DNA from: Escherichia coli
GTDB taxonomy: Bacteria; Pseudomonadota; Gammaproteobacteria; Enterobacterales; Enterobacteriaceae
Strand: one strand, 5' to 3'
Assembly: GCF_001677475.2 (NCBI RefSeq)
Contig: NZ_CP015229.1
Length of the DNA stretch: 64,000 nt
The notes below the pieces were generated by a model that saw nothing but the letters and a program-made list of their open reading frames with translations, did not search any database and was not told where the DNA came from. A program made the translations under genes and the position numbers. This document shows, in pieces, positions 12,428-50,888 of this stretch. Position 1 is the stretch's first letter; each line of letters starts with the position of its first letter.

Positions 12428-13073
12428 GTCGAAAATGATTGTGCGCACCAAATTTATTGATCGCGCCTGTCACTGGACCGTGGTGATTTGCTTCTTCCTG
12501 GTGGCGCTGTCCGGGATTTCGTTCTTCTTCCCGACGCTGCAATGGCTGACGCAAACCTTCGGTACGCCGCAGATGGGACGCATTTTGCACCCGTTCTTCG
12601 GCATTGCGATTTTCGTCGCGCTGATGTTTATGTTTGTGCGTTTTGTGCATCACAACATCCCGGATAAGAAAGATATTCCGTGGCTGTTGAACATTGTCGA
12701 AGTATTAAAAGGCAATGAGCACAAAGTGGCGGATGTTGGTAAGTACAACGCCGGGCAAAAGATGATGTTCTGGTCGATCATGAGCATGATTTTCGTGCTG
12801 CTGGTGACCGGGGTGATTATCTGGCGTCCGTACTTTGCGCAGTACTTCCCGATGCAGGTTGTTCGCTACAGCCTGCTGATCCACGCGGCTGCCGGTATCA
12901 TCCTGATCCACGCCATCCTGATCCATATGTATATGGCATTTTGGGTGAAAGGATCGATTAAAGGGATGATCGAAGGGAAGGTGAGCCGTCGCTGGGCGAA
13001 GAAACACCATCCGCGCTGGTATCGTGAAATCGAGAAGGCAGAAGCGAAAAAAGAGAGTGAAGAAGGGATATAA
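12420..13073 (+). CDS. fdnI: formate dehydrogenase-N gamma subunit (cytochrome b556)
   Basis: ORF 12378..13073 trimmed to ATG 12420 ([19 protein letters not shown]...), 217 aa. Start overlaps the fdnH stop by 8 nt. Four-helix membrane profile with conserved His residues. Confidence 0.9.
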
Positions 13074-40736: not shown

Positions 40737-42137
40737 TCAGGTATGTTTAAAGCTGTTCTGCTGGGCAATACCCTGCAGTTTCGGGTGATCGCTGAGATAT
40801 TTCAGGGAGGCTTTGTAGTCTTCCAGCAACAGTTCAGCAAAGTCCATTTCGAAGCCACGACGACACATAATGCGCATCACCACGATGTCAGTGGCTTCAC
40901 CGCCGAGAGTGAAGGCCGGAACCTGCCAGCCGCGCAGACGCAGACGTTCAGAGAGGTCGTAGAGGGTGTATCCCGGATCTTCACCATCTTTCAGTTTGAA
41001 GCAGACCGCCGGGATGCCTTCGTCCGGACGACCGGTACAGATGAACTCATACGGCCCCAGTTTGGCGATCTCATCCGCCAGATAGGTAGCGACCTGATAA
41101 GAGGCGTTCTGTACTTTGGTATAGCCTTCACGACCGAGGCGCAGGAATTCATAGTACTGTGCAATTACCTGACCCGCCGGGCGGGAGAAGTTGATGGCGA
41201 AAGTACCAATCTGACCACCGAGGTAGTCAACGTTGAACACCAGTTCCTGCGGCAGCGCTTCTTCGTCACGCCAGATAACCCAGCCGCAGCCCAGCGGAGC
41301 CAGACCGAATTTATGGCCTGAAGCACTGATCGATTTCACCCGCGGCAGGCGGAAGTCCCAGACGATATCCGGGGCAACGAACGGCGCCAGGAAGCCACCG
41401 CTGGCAGCGTCGATGTGCATGTCGATGTCGATACCGGTGTCGGCCTGGAATTTATCCAGCGCATCGTGCAGCGGTTGCGGGAACTCATAGTTACCGGTGT
41501 AGGTCACGCCGAAAGTCGGCACCACGCCGATGGTGTTTTCGTCGCAGGCTTCAATCATGCGTTTCGGGTCCATAAACAACTGACCGGGGCGCATAGGGAT
41601 CTCACGCAGCTCCACATCCCAGTAGCGGGCGAATTTATGCCAGCAGATTTGTACCGGACCGCACACCAGGTTTGGTTTATCCGTTGGTTTGCCTGCAGCT
41701 TCCATACGCTTGCGCCAACGCCATTTCATCGCCATCCCGCCGAGCATACAGGCCTCGGAAGAACCAATGGTGTTGGTGCCAACGGCCTGACCATTTTTCG
41801 GCGCAGGCGCATGCCACAGATCGGCAACCATATTTACGCAACGCAGGTCAATGGCTGCGGATTGCGGATATTCTTCTTTGTCGATCCAGTTTTTGTTAAT
41901 GGATAAATCCATCAATTTGTGGACATTTTCGTCGTCCCAGGTCTGGCAGAAAGTGGCCAGGTTCTGACGAGCGTTGCCATCAAGATATAATTCGTCATTG
42001 ATAATCTGGAATGCGACATCGTCGCGCATTTCGTGCAGCGGAAAACGTTTTGATTCTGCGATAGTGGAAATAGACTTCGCACCAAAACGTGAATCGAGTA
42101 GTTCCGACCTTAAATCCGTTACTTGCTTCTTATCCAT
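40737..42137 (-). CDS. gadB: glutamate decarboxylase beta
   Basis: ORF trimmed to ATG 42137 ([24 protein letters not shown]...), 466 aa; AGGAG RBS; PLP-lysine motif [10 protein letters not shown]. Confidence 0.92.
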
Positions 42138-42216
42138 TTTAAACTCCTTAAAATGATTGGATCGCATTAAAAAAGTAGGATTTATCGATAAAGTAAGCAA
42201 GTGCAAAGGACTCGTG

Positions 42217-42236
42217 TTTAAATAACAAAATCCTAA
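42217..42236 (-). promoter_or_regulatory. GAD box (GadE/RcsB site), exact 20-mer TTAGGATTTTGTTATTTAAA
   Basis: The reverse complement of 42217-42236 is exactly the GAD box sequence, 80-100 bp upstream of the gadB ATG. Confidence 0.65.
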
Positions 42237-42454
42237 TGTTATTTATCGTGAGATATTACACGAATAATATTTTTTCATTGAAAAACAATATAATATGGAA
42301 TTCCTGGGTGGTGGTAAGGTGTTTTATGCTGTTATTTTTATGCGCATTATGTGCCTCCTGAATTATCACGTAAAAATCAGACCTTAAAATATCACTATTA
42401 GTACTTGGTTATTATTTTGAACGCATTTATAAAATTATTACATAAAAATAGCGA

Positions 42455-42493
42455 ATATTGATAAAATCCCCGCCAACGATGTGTTGACGGGGC
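42455..42493 (-). terminator. terminator-like hairpin immediately after the pqqL stop
   Basis: ccccg...cgggg imperfect stem (42468-42493), followed on the minus strand by AUUUUAUCAAUAUU. Confidence 0.4.
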
Positions 42494-42498
42494 TGTTA

Positions 42499-45294
42499 TT
42501 ATTTTGGCAATAATATTCCAGTATAAGTATTTACCGGATGAGAAAGATATTGTTTAACGGCAGTGTTAACATTCTCTACCGTCATTTGTTTCAACAATTG
42601 CTCCTGCTCAGTCCATGCTGCAGGATCGTCATATTGAATAAGACTATTTACAATAGTGTTCGCTAATTGTTGAACGCTACGCTGTTGGATATCGAGGCTG
42701 CGCTGAACGTTTTGCTGGTATTCATTCAGTTCTTGCTCACTGATCCCTTTAGCCAGACGCTTAACCATCACTTCATTCGCTAACGTTAACAGTTCATCAT
42801 GTCGTTCTGGTTGACAAGTAAAAGCCAGCAAATGACTGATATCTTTGGCCTCAGGATCAACCGAGAGGCGAGAAGAAACGCTGTATGCTCCAGATGCCTG
42901 TTCACGAATATTAACGCGTAGATCTTTTGCCAGTGCGACGTTAAAAGCATCGAGCGCCATACGCGTCTCCAGATTTACAGGTGTCCGGGAATCATAACGT
43001 TTCCACTGTGAAACCTGTGCCACAGGTTCATTTTGTTCTTTTACAGTAACCGATGCGTTGTCCGTCGCGCGAGTTAATGGTTTACCTGCGGCTAATGGCG
43101 AATCAGAGTGTTTGATTGATCCTAAGTAACGCGTAATTAACGCCACGAGTTTGTCTTCTGCGACATTACCGACAATGACAAACGTGATATCCGCTGGAGA
43201 TGAAAACAACTGGCGATCGGCAGCCAGCGCATCTGCGGCAGTAAACTGTGCAATCTGATTTTCTTGCAGTAATTTCGTGCGGTCATCAGCATAGCGCGTC
43301 TCATACATCTGCTGGGCGAATTTCTCCGCTGGACGCTGGTCGAGCGTTTTCAACGCCTGAATTTGAGCATTTTGTAGCGATGCCCAAATATTATCGTTAA
43401 TCGTGCTGTGGGTGATTCGCTGGTTAATCAACTGGAAACCAGGTTCAGGGTTATTAGTCCGCGTGCTAACAGAGAGCAATGTATTCATGCCACTGACTTT
43501 ACTGCTCATGGTTACCGAGTTTTCCGCACTCCAGCGTTTCAGGCTGGAAGAGGAGAGTTCACCAACGCCGCTTCCGCTTACTGCTTTATTTGCCAGCGCG
43601 ATAAGTGATTTTTGCTGCGCAGGGAAACTTAAATCGCCTTTATTAGATACGGCAGTAATTTGTAGCTTTTGCTCTTCACCCGCGGATTTTGCCAGAATAA
43701 CCCTGGCACCATTGGAAAGTGTTAATGATGTCAGATTCTCAGCCAGCGTTTCTTTGCTGCTAATTTCCGCCAGTGGGTCAGCGTCTACTGTTAACGATAA
43801 ATTTCTGCCTGGGAAGATGTAAGCCGCCAGCTTTTTGTTGGCGTACTCTTTTTCCAGCGCCAGGATAGCCGCAGGAGACAATGCTTTTTTGGCAGCAACC
43901 TCATTGTTTACCATTTGCTCCCAAAATGCATCCTGGTTCTTTCTTAACTGCTGCCATTTTTCCGCCAGACTTTGCACGGTAATTTGCTGCCACAGACGTT
44001 TCGAAAGTTGATATGTCTCTTCCGGCGACAAGAACGGCGTATTATTTAATGAGCTGGATGCCAGGCGACTGGTCAGCATACGTAAATCACGTTCAGCTTG
44101 CTGATCAACCGCATTTTTCAGCCAGGTGAGGCGGGTAGATTTGACATCATCGAGTTCTTCAGCAGAAAAACCATGCTGATCAATGGTTGCCAACTCTGCC
44201 ATTAATGCATTCGCAGCATCCTGCATATTATCGTCTCGTGCATTTACACGGAAAAACAGCGACTGATAATCGGGTGCAATTTTAACGCTGCGCGCAGTGC
44301 CGCCAGAAATAGTCTTCAACTCGCCCGACTGTATGCGTTCCTGCAGACGTTGATTGAACAGCTGAACTAACATGCTCCATTCCGCTTGTTCGATAAAGCT
44401 TTGCTCATCGTTCACTTGTACCATTGGCAGGCGATAATAGAGTGCGATGCCGTTCACCCGGTTTTCTTTATCATTAATGATATTAAAGCGCAGGTGATTT
44501 TCGGCTTTTGTCGGCCAGACGCGATTTTCAGCTGCTTTGTTAGCCGGAAGCTTACTTAAATTATCCTTTATCAGCGCCAGCGCTTCTTTACTGTCGATAT
44601 CGCCGACCACGATAAAGGTCATATTATTTGGTTGATACCAGCGTTGATAAAATTGGCGCAATTGTGCCGGTGTGACCGTGGCGACAGTATCCATCAGGCC
44701 GATAGGTTCACGGTCTAAATTACGGGTATTAGCCAGCAGGAAAGGGCGGCGCGCCTGAGAGGTGCGCCATTTCGCATCCTGATGGGCACGCCATTCCTCA
44801 GTAATTACGCCACGTTCAGCGTCAACTTCGAGTTTTTCAAAGGTTGCGGCATTACTCCATTCACTGAAGATTGCCATCACTTGTTGCAGATTTTGTTTCT
44901 GCGTAGTCGGCAAACTCACCTGATACACCGTTTCGTCATAGCTGGTATAGGCATTAACATCGCGACCAAAACGCAGGCCCATTGACTCAAATGTTTCGAT
45001 GACTTTATTACCCGGCCATGTTTTTGTGCCGTTAAACATCATATGTTCTACAAAATGAGCCACGCCGCGCTCATTGTCTTCTTCCTGCAATGAACCGGTA
45101 TGAATTTGCAGCCATAAATTTATCTGATCCTTTGGATGAGCATGCGGATAAATCATATATCGCAAGCCATTGTCCAGTTGCCCGGTAATTAACTTTTCAT
45201 CCTGCGGTAAGGCGGCGGCAATCAGCCGCCCGGGGAGCAACAGAGTTGCCACTAACGTCAGTAAGAAACAGAGGTTTCTCATAATTATCTCCAT
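42499..45294 (-). CDS. pqqL: periplasmic M16-family zinc metalloprotease
   Basis: 931 aa; HxxEH inverted zinc motif (HFVEHMMFNGT); signal peptide; alternative start at the internal MRNLCFLL. Confidence 0.88.
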   Translation of the reverse strand: MEIIMRNLCFLLTLVATLLLPGRLIAAALPQDEKLITGQLDNGLRYMIYPHAHPKDQINLWLQIHTGSLQEEDNERGVAHFVEHMMFNGTKTWPGNKVIETFESMGLRFGRDVNAYTSYDETVYQVSLPTTQKQNLQQVMAIFSEWSNAATFEKLEVDAERGVITEEWRAHQDAKWRTSQARRPFLLANTRNLDREPIGLMDTVATVTPAQLRQFYQRWYQPNNMTFIVVGDIDSKEALALIKDNLSKLPANKAAENRVWPTKAENHLRFNIINDKENRVNGIALYYRLPMVQVNDEQSFIEQAEWSMLVQLFNQRLQERIQSGELKTISGGTARSVKIAPDYQSLFFRVNARDDNMQDAANALMAELATIDQHGFSAEELDDVKSTRLTWLKNAVDQQAERDLRMLTSRLASSSLNNTPFLSPEETYQLSKRLWQQITVQSLAEKWQQLRKNQDAFWEQMVNNEVAAKKALSPAAILALEKEYANKKLAAYIFPGRNLSLTVDADPLAEISSKETLAENLTSLTLSNGARVILAKSAGEEQKLQITAVSNKGDLSFPAQQKSLIALANKAVSGSGVGELSSSSLKRWSAENSVTMSSKVSGMNTLLSVSTRTNNPEPGFQLINQRITHSTINDNIWASLQNAQIQALKTLDQRPAEKFAQQMYETRYADDRTKLLQENQIAQFTAADALAADRQLFSSPADITFVIVGNVAEDKLVALITRYLGSIKHSDSPLAAGKPLTRATDNASVTVKEQNEPVAQVSQWKRYDSRTPVNLETRMALDAFNVALAKDLRVNIREQASGAYSVSSRLSVDPEAKDISHLLAFTCQPERHDELLTLANEVMVKRLAKGISEQELNEYQQNVQRSLDIQQRSVQQLANTIVNSLIQYDDPAAWTEQEQLLKQMTVENVNTAVKQYLSHPVNTYTGILLPK

Positions 45295-45338
45295 GCGAAA
45301 ACCGGGCGAATTTACCCGGTTAAGTAAAATCCGAACTA

Positions 45339-47711
45339 TTAAAATTTCATGCTGACATCAAGCCAGAAAGTACGGCCACTGGCGTAGGTCGCCACACCGG
45401 TATTCGTTGTATCAACAGCGGTTTTGCTATCCAGTACATTGAGAATATCGGCACTGATCGTCAGGTTTTGTTGTTTCAGAAATTGTGGCGTCCAGGACAA
45501 GCGGGTGTCCCAGGTCAGGCTGCTATCCAGTTTTTCGTCAACATACTGCTTGTAATCTGAATATTCGCTGTTGTATTGCGCATTCGTCTTACCCAGGATA
45601 ATGCGAGCTTTACGCGCTTCTTGCCAGGCCAGCGTATTCGCCCACACCAACCCGCTCGGTTGATGCGTGAAATCCATGTTTAAGGAGATCTTTAATGGGT
45701 TATTAAAATCCGCCACTGGAACGCTATCGTAAGAAACCAGATTACCGTTATAAACCACCTGGTTATCACCGGTATTGCTCTCCTCATAACCATTGTTTAA
45801 CGACAAGTTGCCCTTGCTCTTGATATAGCTAAAGACAATTTGCGGGTTAATATCTACCTGGCTGATATGCAGGGGTTCGGCCAGTTCAAGACTGAGGTTA
45901 AACGAATGCGTTTTGGTTTTGCCGTCGTTGTTATATTCAGTAATGGTGGTTTTAGTCGCGCTGTCGGTACGACTGCTTTTGCTGATTTGATCATGCGCTT
46001 CACGGTAAACATAGTTTGCGCGCGCAATAACGTTCTTACCGAATTTTTGCTGCAATCCCATTGCCAGTTCATCGTTATAAGGCGTTTTCAAATCCTGATA
46101 ACGCGTCAGGGTTTTATTGCCTGATACAGATTCCGTCCAGCTATTGCGGATATCACGTAATCCCATATCAAGAATATTCCCGCCATAGTAACGGTTATAA
46201 CCTGCGGTAATCATTGAGGTTTGATCAGCAAAAATATCCCATTCCGTCATAAAGCGTGGGGAAATATTGTGGTTTGACAGATAGTTGTCATAGTCATACC
46301 GCACGCCGGGCATTAACGACACATTACGCCAGCTAATGCGATCCGCCATATACAGCGTGTAGTTGTCAATTCCCAGGCTGCCTTTACCTTTATGGTAAAT
46401 GGTATGGTTAGTTTTCTTTCCGGCAGCATTAATCACATAGGATTCAGACTGGTTATGGCGTTCGGTCCATGCATCGGAATAGATGTATTCCGCGCCGAAG
46501 TAGGGTTGATGAGAAACATTACCCACGGTGAATTTTTGCCAGTCCAGGCGTGTTTTGAAGGTGTAATTATCTACAGCCTGGGAAATGTGTCCTAATCCGC
46601 CACGGGTGCAACGCCCTGTAATATCACCATATGTACATGAAAGTTCGGTGTACCAGATGTCATGATCGTGACGGGTATAATCACTAATATGATCCCAACC
46701 AACGGTGGTACGTAGTTTGGCCCATGCGAGATGCGTATCCATATCCCATGCCAGACCGTAGGATTTATTACCCATTTCGCGATCAGACTGCGGGAAGGTG
46801 CTGGTATTATAATCACGGCTGGAGCCGGTATATTTTAAGGTTAAATCGTGGGTAAAGCGGTCGCTGGCAAACCAGGTAAATTTGCTCACTGCGGTATCGA
46901 TAACGTTTTTGTACTGTGCCCGACCGGCGACAATGCCGTCATTCGAAACATAATCCGCGCGGGTGATATCAGACTGGCGGCGCGATAAACCGGCGGTAAC
47001 GCCGAAGTTATGAGCGAGTTCCTGATTAAATGACAAAGTATAAAAGTTCTTTTTAAAATCTGGAGAGTAATAAGTACTTCCTGAAGAACCTTGATTAAAT
47101 GCGCTCTTGTTATTCTCATCGATATGCGATGTTAACCAGTCCGAACGCGTAGTGCGGTAACCCAGTTTCACGCTGCTATCATCAGCGTTGAAGCGTTTGA
47201 TCTTTGCATCAATTACCCCGCCATTGAAGCGACCAAATTCAACCGGCACAAAACTGTCATAAAGCGTCACATTGTCCAGTAAGCTGACATCAAGATAATA
47301 CCCCTGTGACATCCCGCTAATATTGGTTGCACTACTGGCATCGGACTCATTCGCTGGGTTCAGGTTATTAGTTGCACTAATACCGTCAATCAAATAGGCA
47401 TTCTGGTAGGGCGACGCACCGTGAATAGAGATTTTCTCCGGGCGAATATCTCCCTGGTTCAACGAGGTACTTTGCGTTGAATCCATGCGTACCGCAGGGT
47501 TGGTTCTCAGCAGATCGCTGATATTGCCATTCCCGGTCGGTAAACGCTCGATGCTTTCACTGGTGTAATGCGTGTTGCCGTTTACGGGTACAGGGACAGG
47601 AGCATAGACCGTCATCTCTTCAAAAAAATGCATGTACATGTTTTTGTCATCGACGGCCTGCGCCACATCAGCGCCACATAAAATGACGCCAGGAATAAGA
47701 ACTCGCTTCAT
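45339..47711 (-). CDS. yddB: TonB-dependent outer-membrane receptor
   Basis: 790 aa; signal peptide, plug-domain and beta-barrel features, C-terminal ...WLDVSMKF. Confidence 0.88.
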   Translation of the reverse strand: MKRVLIPGVILCGADVAQAVDDKNMYMHFFEEMTVYAPVPVPVNGNTHYTSESIERLPTGNGNISDLLRTNPAVRMDSTQSTSLNQGDIRPEKISIHGASPYQNAYLIDGISATNNLNPANESDASSATNISGMSQGYYLDVSLLDNVTLYDSFVPVEFGRFNGGVIDAKIKRFNADDSSVKLGYRTTRSDWLTSHIDENNKSAFNQGSSGSTYYSPDFKKNFYTLSFNQELAHNFGVTAGLSRRQSDITRADYVSNDGIVAGRAQYKNVIDTAVSKFTWFASDRFTHDLTLKYTGSSRDYNTSTFPQSDREMGNKSYGLAWDMDTHLAWAKLRTTVGWDHISDYTRHDHDIWYTELSCTYGDITGRCTRGGLGHISQAVDNYTFKTRLDWQKFTVGNVSHQPYFGAEYIYSDAWTERHNQSESYVINAAGKKTNHTIYHKGKGSLGIDNYTLYMADRISWRNVSLMPGVRYDYDNYLSNHNISPRFMTEWDIFADQTSMITAGYNRYYGGNILDMGLRDIRNSWTESVSGNKTLTRYQDLKTPYNDELAMGLQQKFGKNVIARANYVYREAHDQISKSSRTDSATKTTITEYNNDGKTKTHSFNLSLELAEPLHISQVDINPQIVFSYIKSKGNLSLNNGYEESNTGDNQVVYNGNLVSYDSVPVADFNNPLKISLNMDFTHQPSGLVWANTLAWQEARKARIILGKTNAQYNSEYSDYKQYVDEKLDSSLTWDTRLSWTPQFLKQQNLTISADILNVLDSKTAVDTTNTGVATYASGRTFWLDVSMKF

Positions 47712-47748
47712 TTATTTATATCTCCGTACAGCAGGGCTTTTATTGTTT

Positions 47749-49434
47749 TTATAAAACCGCGCTAATGTCACAAATATCATCAGCCAGGTTCCAGACACCG
47801 GGTTGATGTGTAACCATAATGACGCCGCTTGTGGGTAGTTTTTCACGCACTAAACGCAGTAAGCGGATAGCCTCTTGTTCCTCAAGATGAGAGGTAGTTT
47901 CGTCAAGAAATATCCATTTCGGACGTCGTAAAATTAATCGTGCCAGGGCGATACGTTGTTTTTCGCCGCTGGAAAGAATATCTCCCCAGCGATCGTGGTC
48001 ATGAATACGCGCAGCCAATTTCCCCAGACCAACCTGATGCAGTACTTCGCTCAACGATTTATCGTCTACGGGCAGGGGAAGTGCTTTACAAATAATCTCT
48101 TTCAGTAAGCCGGTTTTGATTAACGGTGTTTGTGACACATACCAACTGTCAGCAGGAGAAGAAATATAACCTTTAAACCACGGCCAGCAGTGAGATAATG
48201 TTTTAAGCAGTGTGGTTTTTCCCGCACCAGAGTAACCTTTCAGTAATAGCCATTTGCCTGGCGGAACATGAAAGTTCAGGTTCTCTAATATGATCTTATT
48301 ATCAGGGGTACGAATACTCGCGTCAGCCACTTGTACCGCATGTTGGCAATTTTTAGGCTTATTCGTAGGGCGCTGTTCGGTGAGTTGATGGAACTCATAC
48401 AAGCGATCGATAACCGCAGCCAGTTCAGCAATTTCATCATATTTATAAATAAACCAGCTTAAATTGTTCGATACCAGCATAAATGCCTGGCGCGATTTCA
48501 TAAGTCCGCCCAGATTGATCTGTCCGCTAATAAACTGCGGCAATAACAGAAAGTAGGGAAGAACGCTAAGCGAACGCGAATAAATATTCTGCCAGTAATC
48601 AAGCCACCGCTGACGATTCATTAAACGATGCCAGTTCTCTTTAATGGTATGAAAATTGTCGCTCAACTCCTGGCGTTGTAGAGACTCAGCATTGCTTAGC
48701 GCAATCAGTTCTGCCTGTTTATTATGCTGCACAAGATTAGTTCGAAATGTCGCTTCGCTACGTTGTTTTTCCACATTAAGCGGACGAATACGTTTACCCA
48801 CCTTATGGGTAAATAAAGTTCCACCGATCACAATGAGCACGACGGTATAGACCATATACCCCTGGATATTCCATTCTGTTCCACCAACAGTGAATGAGAG
48901 CGTACCCGCACTTTGCCAAAGAATAACGGTAAAGGTGATCAGCATGCTAAGCGACTGGATGAAGCCAAATGAAAGGCTGAGCGTTTTACTGATCAGTAAG
49001 AGAATGTCCTCAGCGATACGTTGGTCAGGGTTATCTGTATTTTTATGCTCGCCGTAGATTTGCGTGAAGTAGTAGTTTTTATCTGCAAACCAGCGATTAA
49101 GATAGTAATCTGTTAACCATTCGCGCCAGCGAATAGTCAGTAGTTTAATTAACCATGTTTTGTTTACGGATATTAATACAAAGATCCCCAGCAGGGCAGG
49201 GAACCAAAGAACAAGCTGCCAAAGCTTATCGGTTTCTTTCTGGCTTAGCGCATTGAAAAAATCATTATTCCAGTCGTTTAACCAGACCTGAATTTTAACA
49301 ACGCCAAGGATCATGGCGAGGATAATAATGATTAACAGCACTGAAGTTTTATTATTCTTACGCAGCCAAAAGGGCTTCAGCAGACAGAGATACTTTGCTA
49401 TCAACATACAAAACGTAATGGGAATGGTTATCAT
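47749..49434 (-). CDS. yddA: ABC transporter, fused permease/ATPase
   Basis: 561 aa; N-terminal TM domain, then Walker A GYSGAGKTT, ABC signature LSSGEKQR and Walker B. Confidence 0.88.
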   Translation of the reverse strand: MITIPITFCMLIAKYLCLLKPFWLRKNNKTSVLLIIIILAMILGVVKIQVWLNDWNNDFFNALSQKETDKLWQLVLWFPALLGIFVLISVNKTWLIKLLTIRWREWLTDYYLNRWFADKNYYFTQIYGEHKNTDNPDQRIAEDILLLISKTLSLSFGFIQSLSMLITFTVILWQSAGTLSFTVGGTEWNIQGYMVYTVVLIVIGGTLFTHKVGKRIRPLNVEKQRSEATFRTNLVQHNKQAELIALSNAESLQRQELSDNFHTIKENWHRLMNRQRWLDYWQNIYSRSLSVLPYFLLLPQFISGQINLGGLMKSRQAFMLVSNNLSWFIYKYDEIAELAAVIDRLYEFHQLTEQRPTNKPKNCQHAVQVADASIRTPDNKIILENLNFHVPPGKWLLLKGYSGAGKTTLLKTLSHCWPWFKGYISSPADSWYVSQTPLIKTGLLKEIICKALPLPVDDKSLSEVLHQVGLGKLAARIHDHDRWGDILSSGEKQRIALARLILRRPKWIFLDETTSHLEEQEAIRLLRLVREKLPTSGVIMVTHQPGVWNLADDICDISAVL

Positions 49435-49639
49435 TAGCGAAAATTGATTGTGCCATCCAATGATTGTCTATGGCAATGATTTACTGATGAAATTTATTTA
49501 AGTGTCATTTAACAATATGAAATATAAAGGAATATTTCATTTTCAGTGGTTATGGTTATGCTATTGATAATCAAGGATATTGCTAATGCTAATGCCCTGA
49601 CGCATACCACGTAAGCCAGGATTTTCGCAAGGGAAGATG

Positions 49640-49677
49640 ATGATGACGAAACACCCGACAGGAATATGTGTCGGGTG
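49640..49677 (-). terminator. terminator-like hairpin after ydeM
   Basis: Perfect 9-bp stem cacccgaca / tgtcgggtg with an 8-nt loop, then on the minus strand UUUCGUCAUCAUC. Confidence 0.45.
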
Positions 49678-49730
49678 CATTGTTAAGGTCATAAGAAGGA
49701 GGCTAAGACTGGAGCTAAGAGGGAGCGTTA

Positions 49731-50888
49731 TTAATTATTCTCCATTTGTCTTGCAACATCCATGATGTGGTAAAGCGGTACTCTGTTCTTAGCTAACTCC
49801 ACCATGGCGTTCAAATAAGGCACCATGGTTGAAAAAAGGATTTTATAACCTTCACAAAAATAGGAAACAGTCTCATTGTTTACTTTAGTAATACGATGCT
49901 TAGGACAACCGCCATTGCAGATAGGTTTATATGCACATTGCTGACATTTCGCTGAAATCCGTTTTTTTTGCGCTGTCAGTTGAACACTGTTCATCGTTTT
50001 GAGTTCAGATTTATTAATGTTTCCAATTTTGTACTGTGGATAGACAAAATGGTCGCATTCGTAAATGTCTCCATTACTTTCAACAACCAGATTATCCTTG
50101 CAGGACTCCTGGAAAATACAACTGGTATGCCCATTCCCCAAAAAACGGCTGACAAAGCTTTCAAACTGACGGATGAAAATTTCACCCACATCGTTTTTAA
50201 CCCATTGCATAAAAATGGTCGACATAAACTTGCCATAAGCCGTAGGAGGCACAGAAAAATCAATGATACGGAATGTGTTCTCACTATGACCACTGAAATC
50301 AATATTCGGCGTCCCGGTTTCGAGCAATTCGATAAATTGCATATGTTTACTGCCGATAGATTTTAAAAAATGATAAACCTCAAGAGGGTAATGGACATTA
50401 ACGTTATTAATGACGGTTAACGTATTAAACTCTACTTGATATGATTTCAGACGCTCGATGGCTGCTATCACTTTTGTAAAAGTACCGTTACCTGAATTAC
50501 TGCGTCTGTAACGGTCATGTAGCTCCTGGGGTCCATCGATCGAGATACCAACCAGAAACTCATGTTCTTTGAGAAAGGCACACCATTCATTATTCAATAA
50601 AATGCCATTCGTTTGTAATGCATTAAAAATACGTTTTTGGCCTGCATAGCGTTGTTGATAGTGAATAACTTTACGGAAAAAATCCAGGCCAGCCAGAGTG
50701 GGTTCACCGCCTTGCCAGGTAAAATAGACCTGATTGCCAGACGCTGCGATATATTGTTTGATGAACTCTTTCAGAGTGCTGTCATCCATCCATTTTTCAT
50801 GAGTAAACTGCGACTCTTTTTCAAGGTAAAAACAGTAATCACATTTGAGATTACATTGAAAACTGGAGGGCTTGGCTGTAACGTGCAT
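49731..50888 (-). CDS. ydeM: radical-SAM anaerobic sulfatase-maturating enzyme homolog
   Basis: ORF trimmed to ATG 50888 ([24 protein letters not shown]...), 385 aa; CxxxCxxC radical SAM motif and C-terminal Cys clusters ([18 protein letters not shown]). Confidence 0.85.

Follow-up and report, generated by a model that had tools for sequence, protein, structure and literature searches.

The yddA-yddB-pqqL operon of Escherichia coli: a three-gene Fus relative with its Fur operator over the yddA start codon

The DNA analysed in this study (hereafter, the window) is a stretch of 64,000 nucleotides from the Escherichia coli contig NZ_CP015229.1 (assembly GCF_001677475.2). On its minus strand lie three intact open reading frames: yddA (49434-47749, 561 amino acids), which is the first gene of the operon, yddB (47711-45339, 790 amino acids) and pqqL (45294-42499, 931 amino acids), separated by 37 base pairs (bp) and 44 bp, respectively. 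Their identity agrees with the annotation in E. coli records, and co-transcription of the three genes has been reported (Subashchandrabose 2013; PMC3855560). We read this locus as the already published yddA-yddB-pqqL operon, which has three genes and is related to the plant-ferredoxin uptake (Fus) system of Pectobacterium, and we put the probability of this explanation, taken as a whole, at roughly 0.85. The architecture of the operon, the structures of its proteins, its Fur dependence and the position of its Fur operator are all already published. The useful outcome of our analysis is to correct an initial annotation of the window, which had located the operator in hexamers further upstream: it covers the start codon of yddA instead, and a second site is found within the gene.

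The operon of the window closely resembles that of the K-12 and CFT073 strains (b1496-b1494), with the same genes, order, lengths, intergenic gaps and flanking genes; in the K-12 record the three genes stand in this order between gadB and yneP/ydeM. The encoded proteins are 98-99% identical to those of K-12, differing at six residues in YddA (555 of 561 identical), 13 in YddB and nine in PqqL. Moreover, both the Fur cluster at the start codon and the Fur site within yddA are identical in K-12, in sequence as well as in matrix score. On the other hand, the window differs by about 1.5% at the DNA level from the complete E. coli genome closest to it, and it alone among all the sequences compared carries a 6-bp tandem duplication, GCTAAT, in the spacer upstream of yddA.

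The three proteins bear out the resemblance to Fus. PqqL matches its own crystal structures (6OFS and 6OFT, E=0, from residue 27) and, over its full length, those of FusC (6B03, 6B05 and 6BRS, with E-values from 1e-57 to 1e-58; 2e-58 for 6B03). It begins with a signal peptide and contains one Peptidase_M16 and two Peptidase_M16_C domains of Pfam as well as an intact HFVEH zinc motif (HxxEH) at residue 80. These features identify PqqL as a secreted FusC-type M16 protease, encoded next to the receptor gene. YddB, in turn, matches its own structure (6OFR, E=0) and the ferredoxin receptor FusA (4ZGV, 7.1e-80), and it has a Pfam Plug domain, a signal-peptide-like N-terminus and a C-terminus ending in SMKF; by homology, it is a FusA-type TonB-dependent outer-membrane transporter. 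In YddA, a membrane domain is fused to an ATPase (ABC_membrane_2, 1.8e-43; SbmA_BacA, 8.4e-34; ABC_tran, 3.9e-18), with intact Walker A (GYSGAGKT, residue 400) and Walker B (residue 507) motifs. Its closest solved relative is Rv1819c (6TQE, 3.5e-67 over residues 35-552), followed by the ABCD transporters. Rv1819c is described in the field as an importer, and the membrane domain of YddA is of the same SbmA_BacA and ABC_membrane_2 type as those of the exporter-fold importers Rv1819c, BacA and SbmA. The exporter-like ATP-binding cassette (ABC) module recognized in the initial annotation is indeed an exporter-fold ABC transporter, as both the Pfam domains and the Rv1819c match indicate. The gene for this fused transporter is co-oriented with yddB and lies upstream of it, and its product has been assigned FusD homology (PMC5095587).

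The pairing of a TonB-dependent receptor with a periplasmic M16 protease, which the same annotation had taken for a protease-associated import architecture, is thus confirmed by FusA and FusC homology, and it was already in print. Grinter 2016 named YddB, PqqL and YddA as homologues of FusA, FusC and FusD (PMC5095587). Later, Grinter 2019 solved the structures of YddB and PqqL, described in YddB a large FusA-like binding site, found PqqL to be periplasmic, proteolytically active and more abundant under iron limitation or chelation, and defined the "protease-associated import systems" (PMC6793856). The initial annotation had also remarked that the substrate is not evident from sequence; in line with this, the substrate search of Grinter 2019 was unsuccessful (PMC6793856). 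The operon contributes to fitness in mouse bacteraemia and is induced more than 30-fold in urine (Subashchandrabose 2013; PMC3855560). During systemic infection the operon acts as a fitness factor of uropathogenic E. coli. Its interest remains in the imported substrate, a question that the present analysis does not make more testable.

Regulation of the operon by iron and Fur had been anticipated as well, and published data substantiate it. Deletion of fur in MG1655 raises yddA, yddB and pqqL by log2 3.1, 2.9 and 2.3, respectively, and log2 fold changes range from 2.3 to 6.9 across two K-12 strains (Gao 2023; PMC10164565). In addition, PqqL levels increase upon iron chelation (PMC6793856), and Beauchene 2015 reported Fur bound upstream of the operon (PMC4676285). 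The initial annotation was therefore right on operon-level regulation by Fur and wrong on the site, as it misassigned the operator.

Where Fur binds was addressed with a matrix. Counting matches to the 19-bp Fur consensus gave 15 of 19 at the yddA start codon, the best of the window, against 13 of 19 in the upstream hexamer area; since such counts are suggestive only, they were replaced by a symmetric 19-bp log-odds matrix derived from validated sites. The matrix was built from 19 Fur sites of K-12 that have experimental support, with yddA left out and coordinates taken from Chen 2007. It recovers the consensus GATAATGATAATCATTATC, holds 18.6 bits of information and gives its own training sites leave-one-out scores of 9.6-23.1 bits (median 17.8). 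We scored 63,982 positions of the window and estimated chance from dinucleotide shuffles of the intergenic region. The top-ranking position was 49420-49438 (-4 to +14 relative to the yddA ATG), with 17.95 bits, a score reached in only 0.35% of the shuffles (P=0.0035). A second site at 49414-49432 (+2 to +20; 10.2 bits, rank 8) overlaps the first with a shift of 6 bp, so that the two form a primary operator at 49414-49438 that spans -4 to +20 and has no strand of its own. A secondary site, likewise without strand, lies inside yddA at 49318-49336 (+98 to +116; 12.4 bits, rank 4, reached in 5% of the shuffles), with weaker overlapping sites across 49315-49342.

These positions agree with what has been reported before. 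Chen 2007 predicted a two-site, 25-bp Fur cluster that scores 19.6 bits, has its centre at +8 and was placed in the stretch separating the promoter from the start codon (PMC2189734). Subashchandrabose 2013 proposed a Fur box over the yddA start codon, GGGAATGGTTATCATTAG, and found the operon upregulated in a fur mutant (PMC3855560). In the window, GGGAATGGTTATCATTAG occurs at 49421-49438, inside the top-ranking 19-mer. Gao 2023 provides fur-deletion fold changes and binding peaks from chromatin immunoprecipitation with exonuclease treatment (ChIP-exo) for nine strains (PMC10164565), and we mapped several of these peaks onto yddA. The W3110 peak (1581039-1581051) falls at +5 to +17 and the CFT073 peak (1764996-1765008) at +6 to +18. 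The two MG1655 peaks (1577347-74 and 1577233-67) fall at about -7 to +20 and +100 to +134, respectively; they are given in older coordinates, and their mapping, with an uncertainty of 1-2 bp, uses an offset between genome versions of about 1975-1977 bp that we inferred from the Chen 2007 positions of yddA and sufA. Thus, the MG1655 peaks coincide with the two strong matrix clusters, and those of W3110 and CFT073 with the start-codon cluster. The Sakai peak was left out of the mapping, as its genome version is uncertain and its RefSeq yddA starts at Met10. The six further strains have one operon peak each, labelled intragenic (PMC10164565).

Conservation was assessed in an alignment of six sequences: the window, K-12 and four Escherichia-type loci. 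The latter come from a YddA search of genome contigs that returned eight loci (four Escherichia-type, one in a distant Enterobacteriaceae metagenome-assembled genome, one in Neisseria and two matching the ATPase domain only), which gives little depth for phylogenetic footprinting. The block from about -100 to +30 of yddA, which includes the predicted promoter and the operator, is almost invariant, and the intragenic site 49318-49336 is invariant in all six sequences. Both strong Fur clusters persist in the diverged lineages (L018-L020) and nowhere fall below 12 bits. Three substitutions in L019 weaken one site to 12.6 bits and strengthen its 6-bp neighbour to 14.5 bits. Matrix score, comparison with chance, conservation and published in vivo occupancy are all in agreement, and 49414-49438 is a real Fur operator. 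The distant Enterobacteriaceae locus (L021) has the same gene order, with identities of 52% for YddA, 61% for YddB and 47% for PqqL. The best Fur site of its 15.7-kb sequence (20.5 bits) covers -58 to -40 relative to the yddA homologue and has flanking sites, spaced by 6 bp, that score 14.5, 14.5 and 10.8 bits; this indicates that control by Fur is an old property of the operon. The YddA-like gene of Neisseria has no linked receptor or protease.

Another of the four Escherichia-type loci (L017, JARKOR010000108.1) comes from a metagenome-assembled genome labelled Candidatus Nanosynbacter. Its yddA region is K-12-like, with 99% protein identity, and its upstream region is identical to that of K-12 in the aligned stretch; it almost certainly represents E. 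coli contamination of the bin.

The segment that the initial annotation had proposed as a Fur box, ttgataatcaaggatattgctaatg, is present in the window, but at 49564-49588, 1 bp from the interval 49565-49589 assigned to it. It lies 130-154 bp upstream of the yddA ATG (49434), some 140 bp away from the real operator. It belongs to a weak Fur-like hexamer array, without strand, at 49548-49594 (114-160 bp upstream of the ATG) that reads GGTTAT, GGTTAT, GCTATT, GATAAT, the four bases caag, and then GATATT, GCTAAT and GCTAAT. The best matrix sites of the array are 49554-49572 (-138 to -120; 9.2 bits, rank 17), 49560-49578 (-144 to -126; 5.8 bits, rank 60) and 49576-49594 (-160 to -142; 5.5 bits, rank 65). 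The tandem GCTAAT duplication occupies 49582-49593; neither K-12 nor any of L017-L020 has it, and the E. coli hits listed match over 594-596 bp of a 601-bp query, which implies that they lack it as well. Divergent from yddA lies yneP (plus strand, 49643-49765), an intact small open reading frame with extra in-frame ATGs from 49637 (40 amino acids in K-12, b4747). It overlaps the 3' end of ydeM in antisense, and the hexamer array is located about 50-90 bp upstream of it.

The GATAAT-type hexamers are therefore real, but as a Fur box they do not withstand the matrix: a poor Fur matrix score was the refuting outcome named in the initial annotation itself, and the segment shows it. It is very improbable that the segment 49564-49588 is a functional box responsible for the iron regulation of the operon. 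The idea draws on its perfect GATAAT hexamer, together with GATATT and GCTAAT, and on its location upstream of yddA in an operon that is Fur-regulated. Moreover, under a (NATWAT)x3 model, the flanking 18-mers at 49554-49571 and 49576-49593 match 12 of the 15 specified positions, as do 1-bp shifts of them, a level that only 36 of the about 64,000 window positions reach. However, every 19-mer inside 49565-49589 scores below 0 bits, the best of them -4.2. Even the best site overlapping the segment, 49554-49572, falls with its 9.2 bits below the lowest leave-one-out training score (9.6). At least about 90 bp separate the segment from the best predicted -35 hexamer (49471-49476) downstream of it, and it does not overlap the predicted promoter. 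In vivo, ChIP-exo peaks of three strains sit on the start-codon site, and no published peak is found at -130 to -154 in MG1655, W3110 or CFT073. In addition, one of the hexamers is the duplication unseen in the other sequences compared, and a far better site, 49420-49438, explains the regulation. We discarded the flagging of the upstream region by the hexamer model, which weights all hexamer positions equally and is unsupported by matrix, shuffles and ChIP-exo.

A more modest role for the whole array, as a low-affinity accessory Fur site that cooperates with the two strong sites or controls the divergent yneP, is still unlikely. The equivalents of 49554-49572 score higher in two diverged lineages, with 11.3 bits in L018 and 11.65 bits in L019, where the site is shifted to -123 to -105 and its score is kept though the flanking sequence has strongly diverged. 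Furthermore, the core TGATWATCAAT is invariant in the six sequences, and Fur footprints are known to extend onto weak sites (PMC2189734). Against this, no training site scores as low as 9.2 bits, and 18% of the shuffles of the AT-rich intergenic spacer attain that value. The published ChIP-exo data list no peak at the array, and conservation is not motif-specific because the whole block from -150 to +1 is about equally conserved. Besides, yneP has no entry in the supplement tables of Gao 2023 (PMC10164565). At slightly longer odds still, the array might act as a third, low-affinity Fur site, through looping or spreading with the other two or through control of yneP, in which case the extra hexamer added by the GCTAAT duplication would alter regulation.

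Compared with canonical Fur operators, such as those of fhuF, entC, gpmA and ryhB, the site at 49420-49438 scores at the median of the validated sites, and its second, overlapping site stands at the typical 6-bp offset. Unlike them, it does not cover the -35 and -10 elements but the start codon, at the predicted transcription start and immediately beyond it, and a further Fur site lies within the coding region. The predicted sigma-70 promoter (minus strand, 49476-49447) consists of a -35 hexamer TTGCCA (49476-49471), an 18-bp spacer and an extended -10 element, TGgCACAAT (hexamer 49452-49447). Two independent scans of the yddA strand both ranked it first among promoter-like sequences. The start that it predicts is near 49440, and the promoter is invariant across the aligned Escherichia sequences. 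At the other end, an intrinsic-terminator-like hairpin (minus strand, 42492-42468; a 10-bp stem with seven G-C pairs, followed by ATTTTAT) is found just past the pqqL stop codon.

Taken as a Fur-controlled import operon, the locus would most likely be transcribed from the predicted promoter at 49447-49476 to the hairpin at 42468-42492. Under iron sufficiency, Fe2+-Fur occupies the two-site operator at 49414-49438 and the second site at 49318-49336, about 100 bp into yddA. Fur binding and repression of the operon rest on the published ChIP-exo and fur-deletion data; as the operator begins at the predicted transcription start, its geometry suggests that Fur would exclude RNA polymerase or block its escape or early elongation. 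Once the operon is derepressed, YddB may use the housekeeping TonB to bring a bulky substrate through the outer membrane; this substrate is probably a small protein that contains iron. PqqL, whose periplasmic location and protease activity are published, would then cleave the imported substrate in the periplasm, and YddA may move the released product across the inner membrane, as suggested by its homology to Rv1819c, SbmA and BacA and by operon linkage.

Several observations weigh against this account. The promoter and the transcription start are predictions from sequence, and the annotated yddA ATG is not preceded by a Shine-Dalgarno sequence (49407-49434 examined). In addition, YddA of the Sakai strain (L026) starts nine codons later in RefSeq, at Met10. 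Given these facts and a predicted transcription start only about 6 nucleotides upstream of the ATG, the true start codon of yddA and the length of the leader are uncertain. As for regulation, the placement of the MG1655 peaks depends on the offset described above, and dipyridyl alone did not induce the operon in CFT073 (PMC3855560). As for function, human and plant ferredoxins and globins were not cleaved by PqqL, and the operon gave no growth benefit under iron limitation in lysogeny broth (PMC6793856). The E. coli operon also lacks a dedicated TonB of the FusB type, having only its three genes between gadB and yneP/ydeM, and FusB was not treated as universal in the wider family by Grinter 2019. 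Finally, Feng 2020 reported increased drug sensitivity upon deletion of yddA in a strain deficient in acrB, together with vanadate-sensitive efflux of ethidium and norfloxacin (PMC9728188).

The data of Feng 2020 would fit a YddA that works as an ATP-driven multidrug exporter, in an operon that is not a dedicated import pathway, and the fold of YddA is indeed of the exporter type. Nevertheless, we consider this improbable. In its membrane domain, YddA is of SbmA/BacA and ABC_membrane_2 type, and its nearest solved relative is the importer Rv1819c; yddA is co-transcribed and Fur-co-regulated with the genes for a TonB-dependent importer and a periplasmic protease, and the order of the three genes is kept in a distant Enterobacteriaceae genome. 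Import and export roles of YddA are, in any case, not strictly exclusive. Far less credible is a participation of PqqL in pyrroloquinoline quinone (PQQ) biosynthesis. Its weak similarity to PqqF (TIGR02110) and the historical complementation of Methylobacterium pqq mutants, cited in PMC3855560, speak for such a role. However, the 48 bits of the PqqF match stand against a curated cut-off of 320, E. coli makes no PQQ (PMC3855560), and PqqL is periplasmic and structurally FusC-like. On the PqqF score, the assignment of pqqL as a PQQ-biosynthesis gene was rejected.

With Fus of Pectobacterium, the operon shares a FusA-type receptor, a two-lobed periplasmic FusC-type M16 protease, and iron- and Fur-dependent expression. 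The two systems differ in gene order, which in E. coli is ABC transporter, receptor and protease, and in substrate, which for the E. coli system, unlike that of Pectobacterium, is not ferredoxin.

Within the operon, the spacer between yddB and pqqL contains, just before the pqqL ATG, a 7-bp hairpin (AACCGGG...CCCGGTT, then TTT; minus strand, 45321-45300). In published RNA sequencing data, the basal level of pqqL is higher, and its fold change upon fur deletion smaller, than those of yddA. Together, the hairpin and this pattern may point to a partial terminator or an internal promoter. A scan of 42000-50000 against Rfam at E <= 1 matched no RNA family.

An 8-kb stretch with the operon was matched by megablast in 5413 of 5426 complete E. 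coli genomes, with 831 of the 5426 (about 15%) lacking a match over at least 80% of the locus. The best identity to any of these genomes was 98.5-98.8% in the regions tested (20000-42000 and 42000-50000). As this maximum also holds in the flank, the window belongs to an Escherichia or Shigella-like lineage to which no complete genome of the collection is closely related, and the yddA-yddB-pqqL locus is not unusual within that lineage. In Escherichia sp. MOD1-EC7003 (L018), the pqqL homologue appears as two tblastn segments (residues 1-498 and 508-931) around 12624-12634; the segments overlap in the DNA, which is consistent with a frameshift, due either to a pseudogene or to a sequencing error. 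E. coli AR_0055 (L025, NZ_CP021935.1, 5088-6011) has a clean deletion of yddA, yddB and the 5' two-thirds of pqqL, equivalent to about 43400-49720 of the window, which leaves a 918-bp pqqL remnant adjoining ydeM. In some strains (NZ_CP059835.1, NZ_CP075697.1), yddB is interrupted by the insertion sequences IS2 or IS1. These insertions and the deletions of the locus suggest that the operon is dispensable in some lineages.

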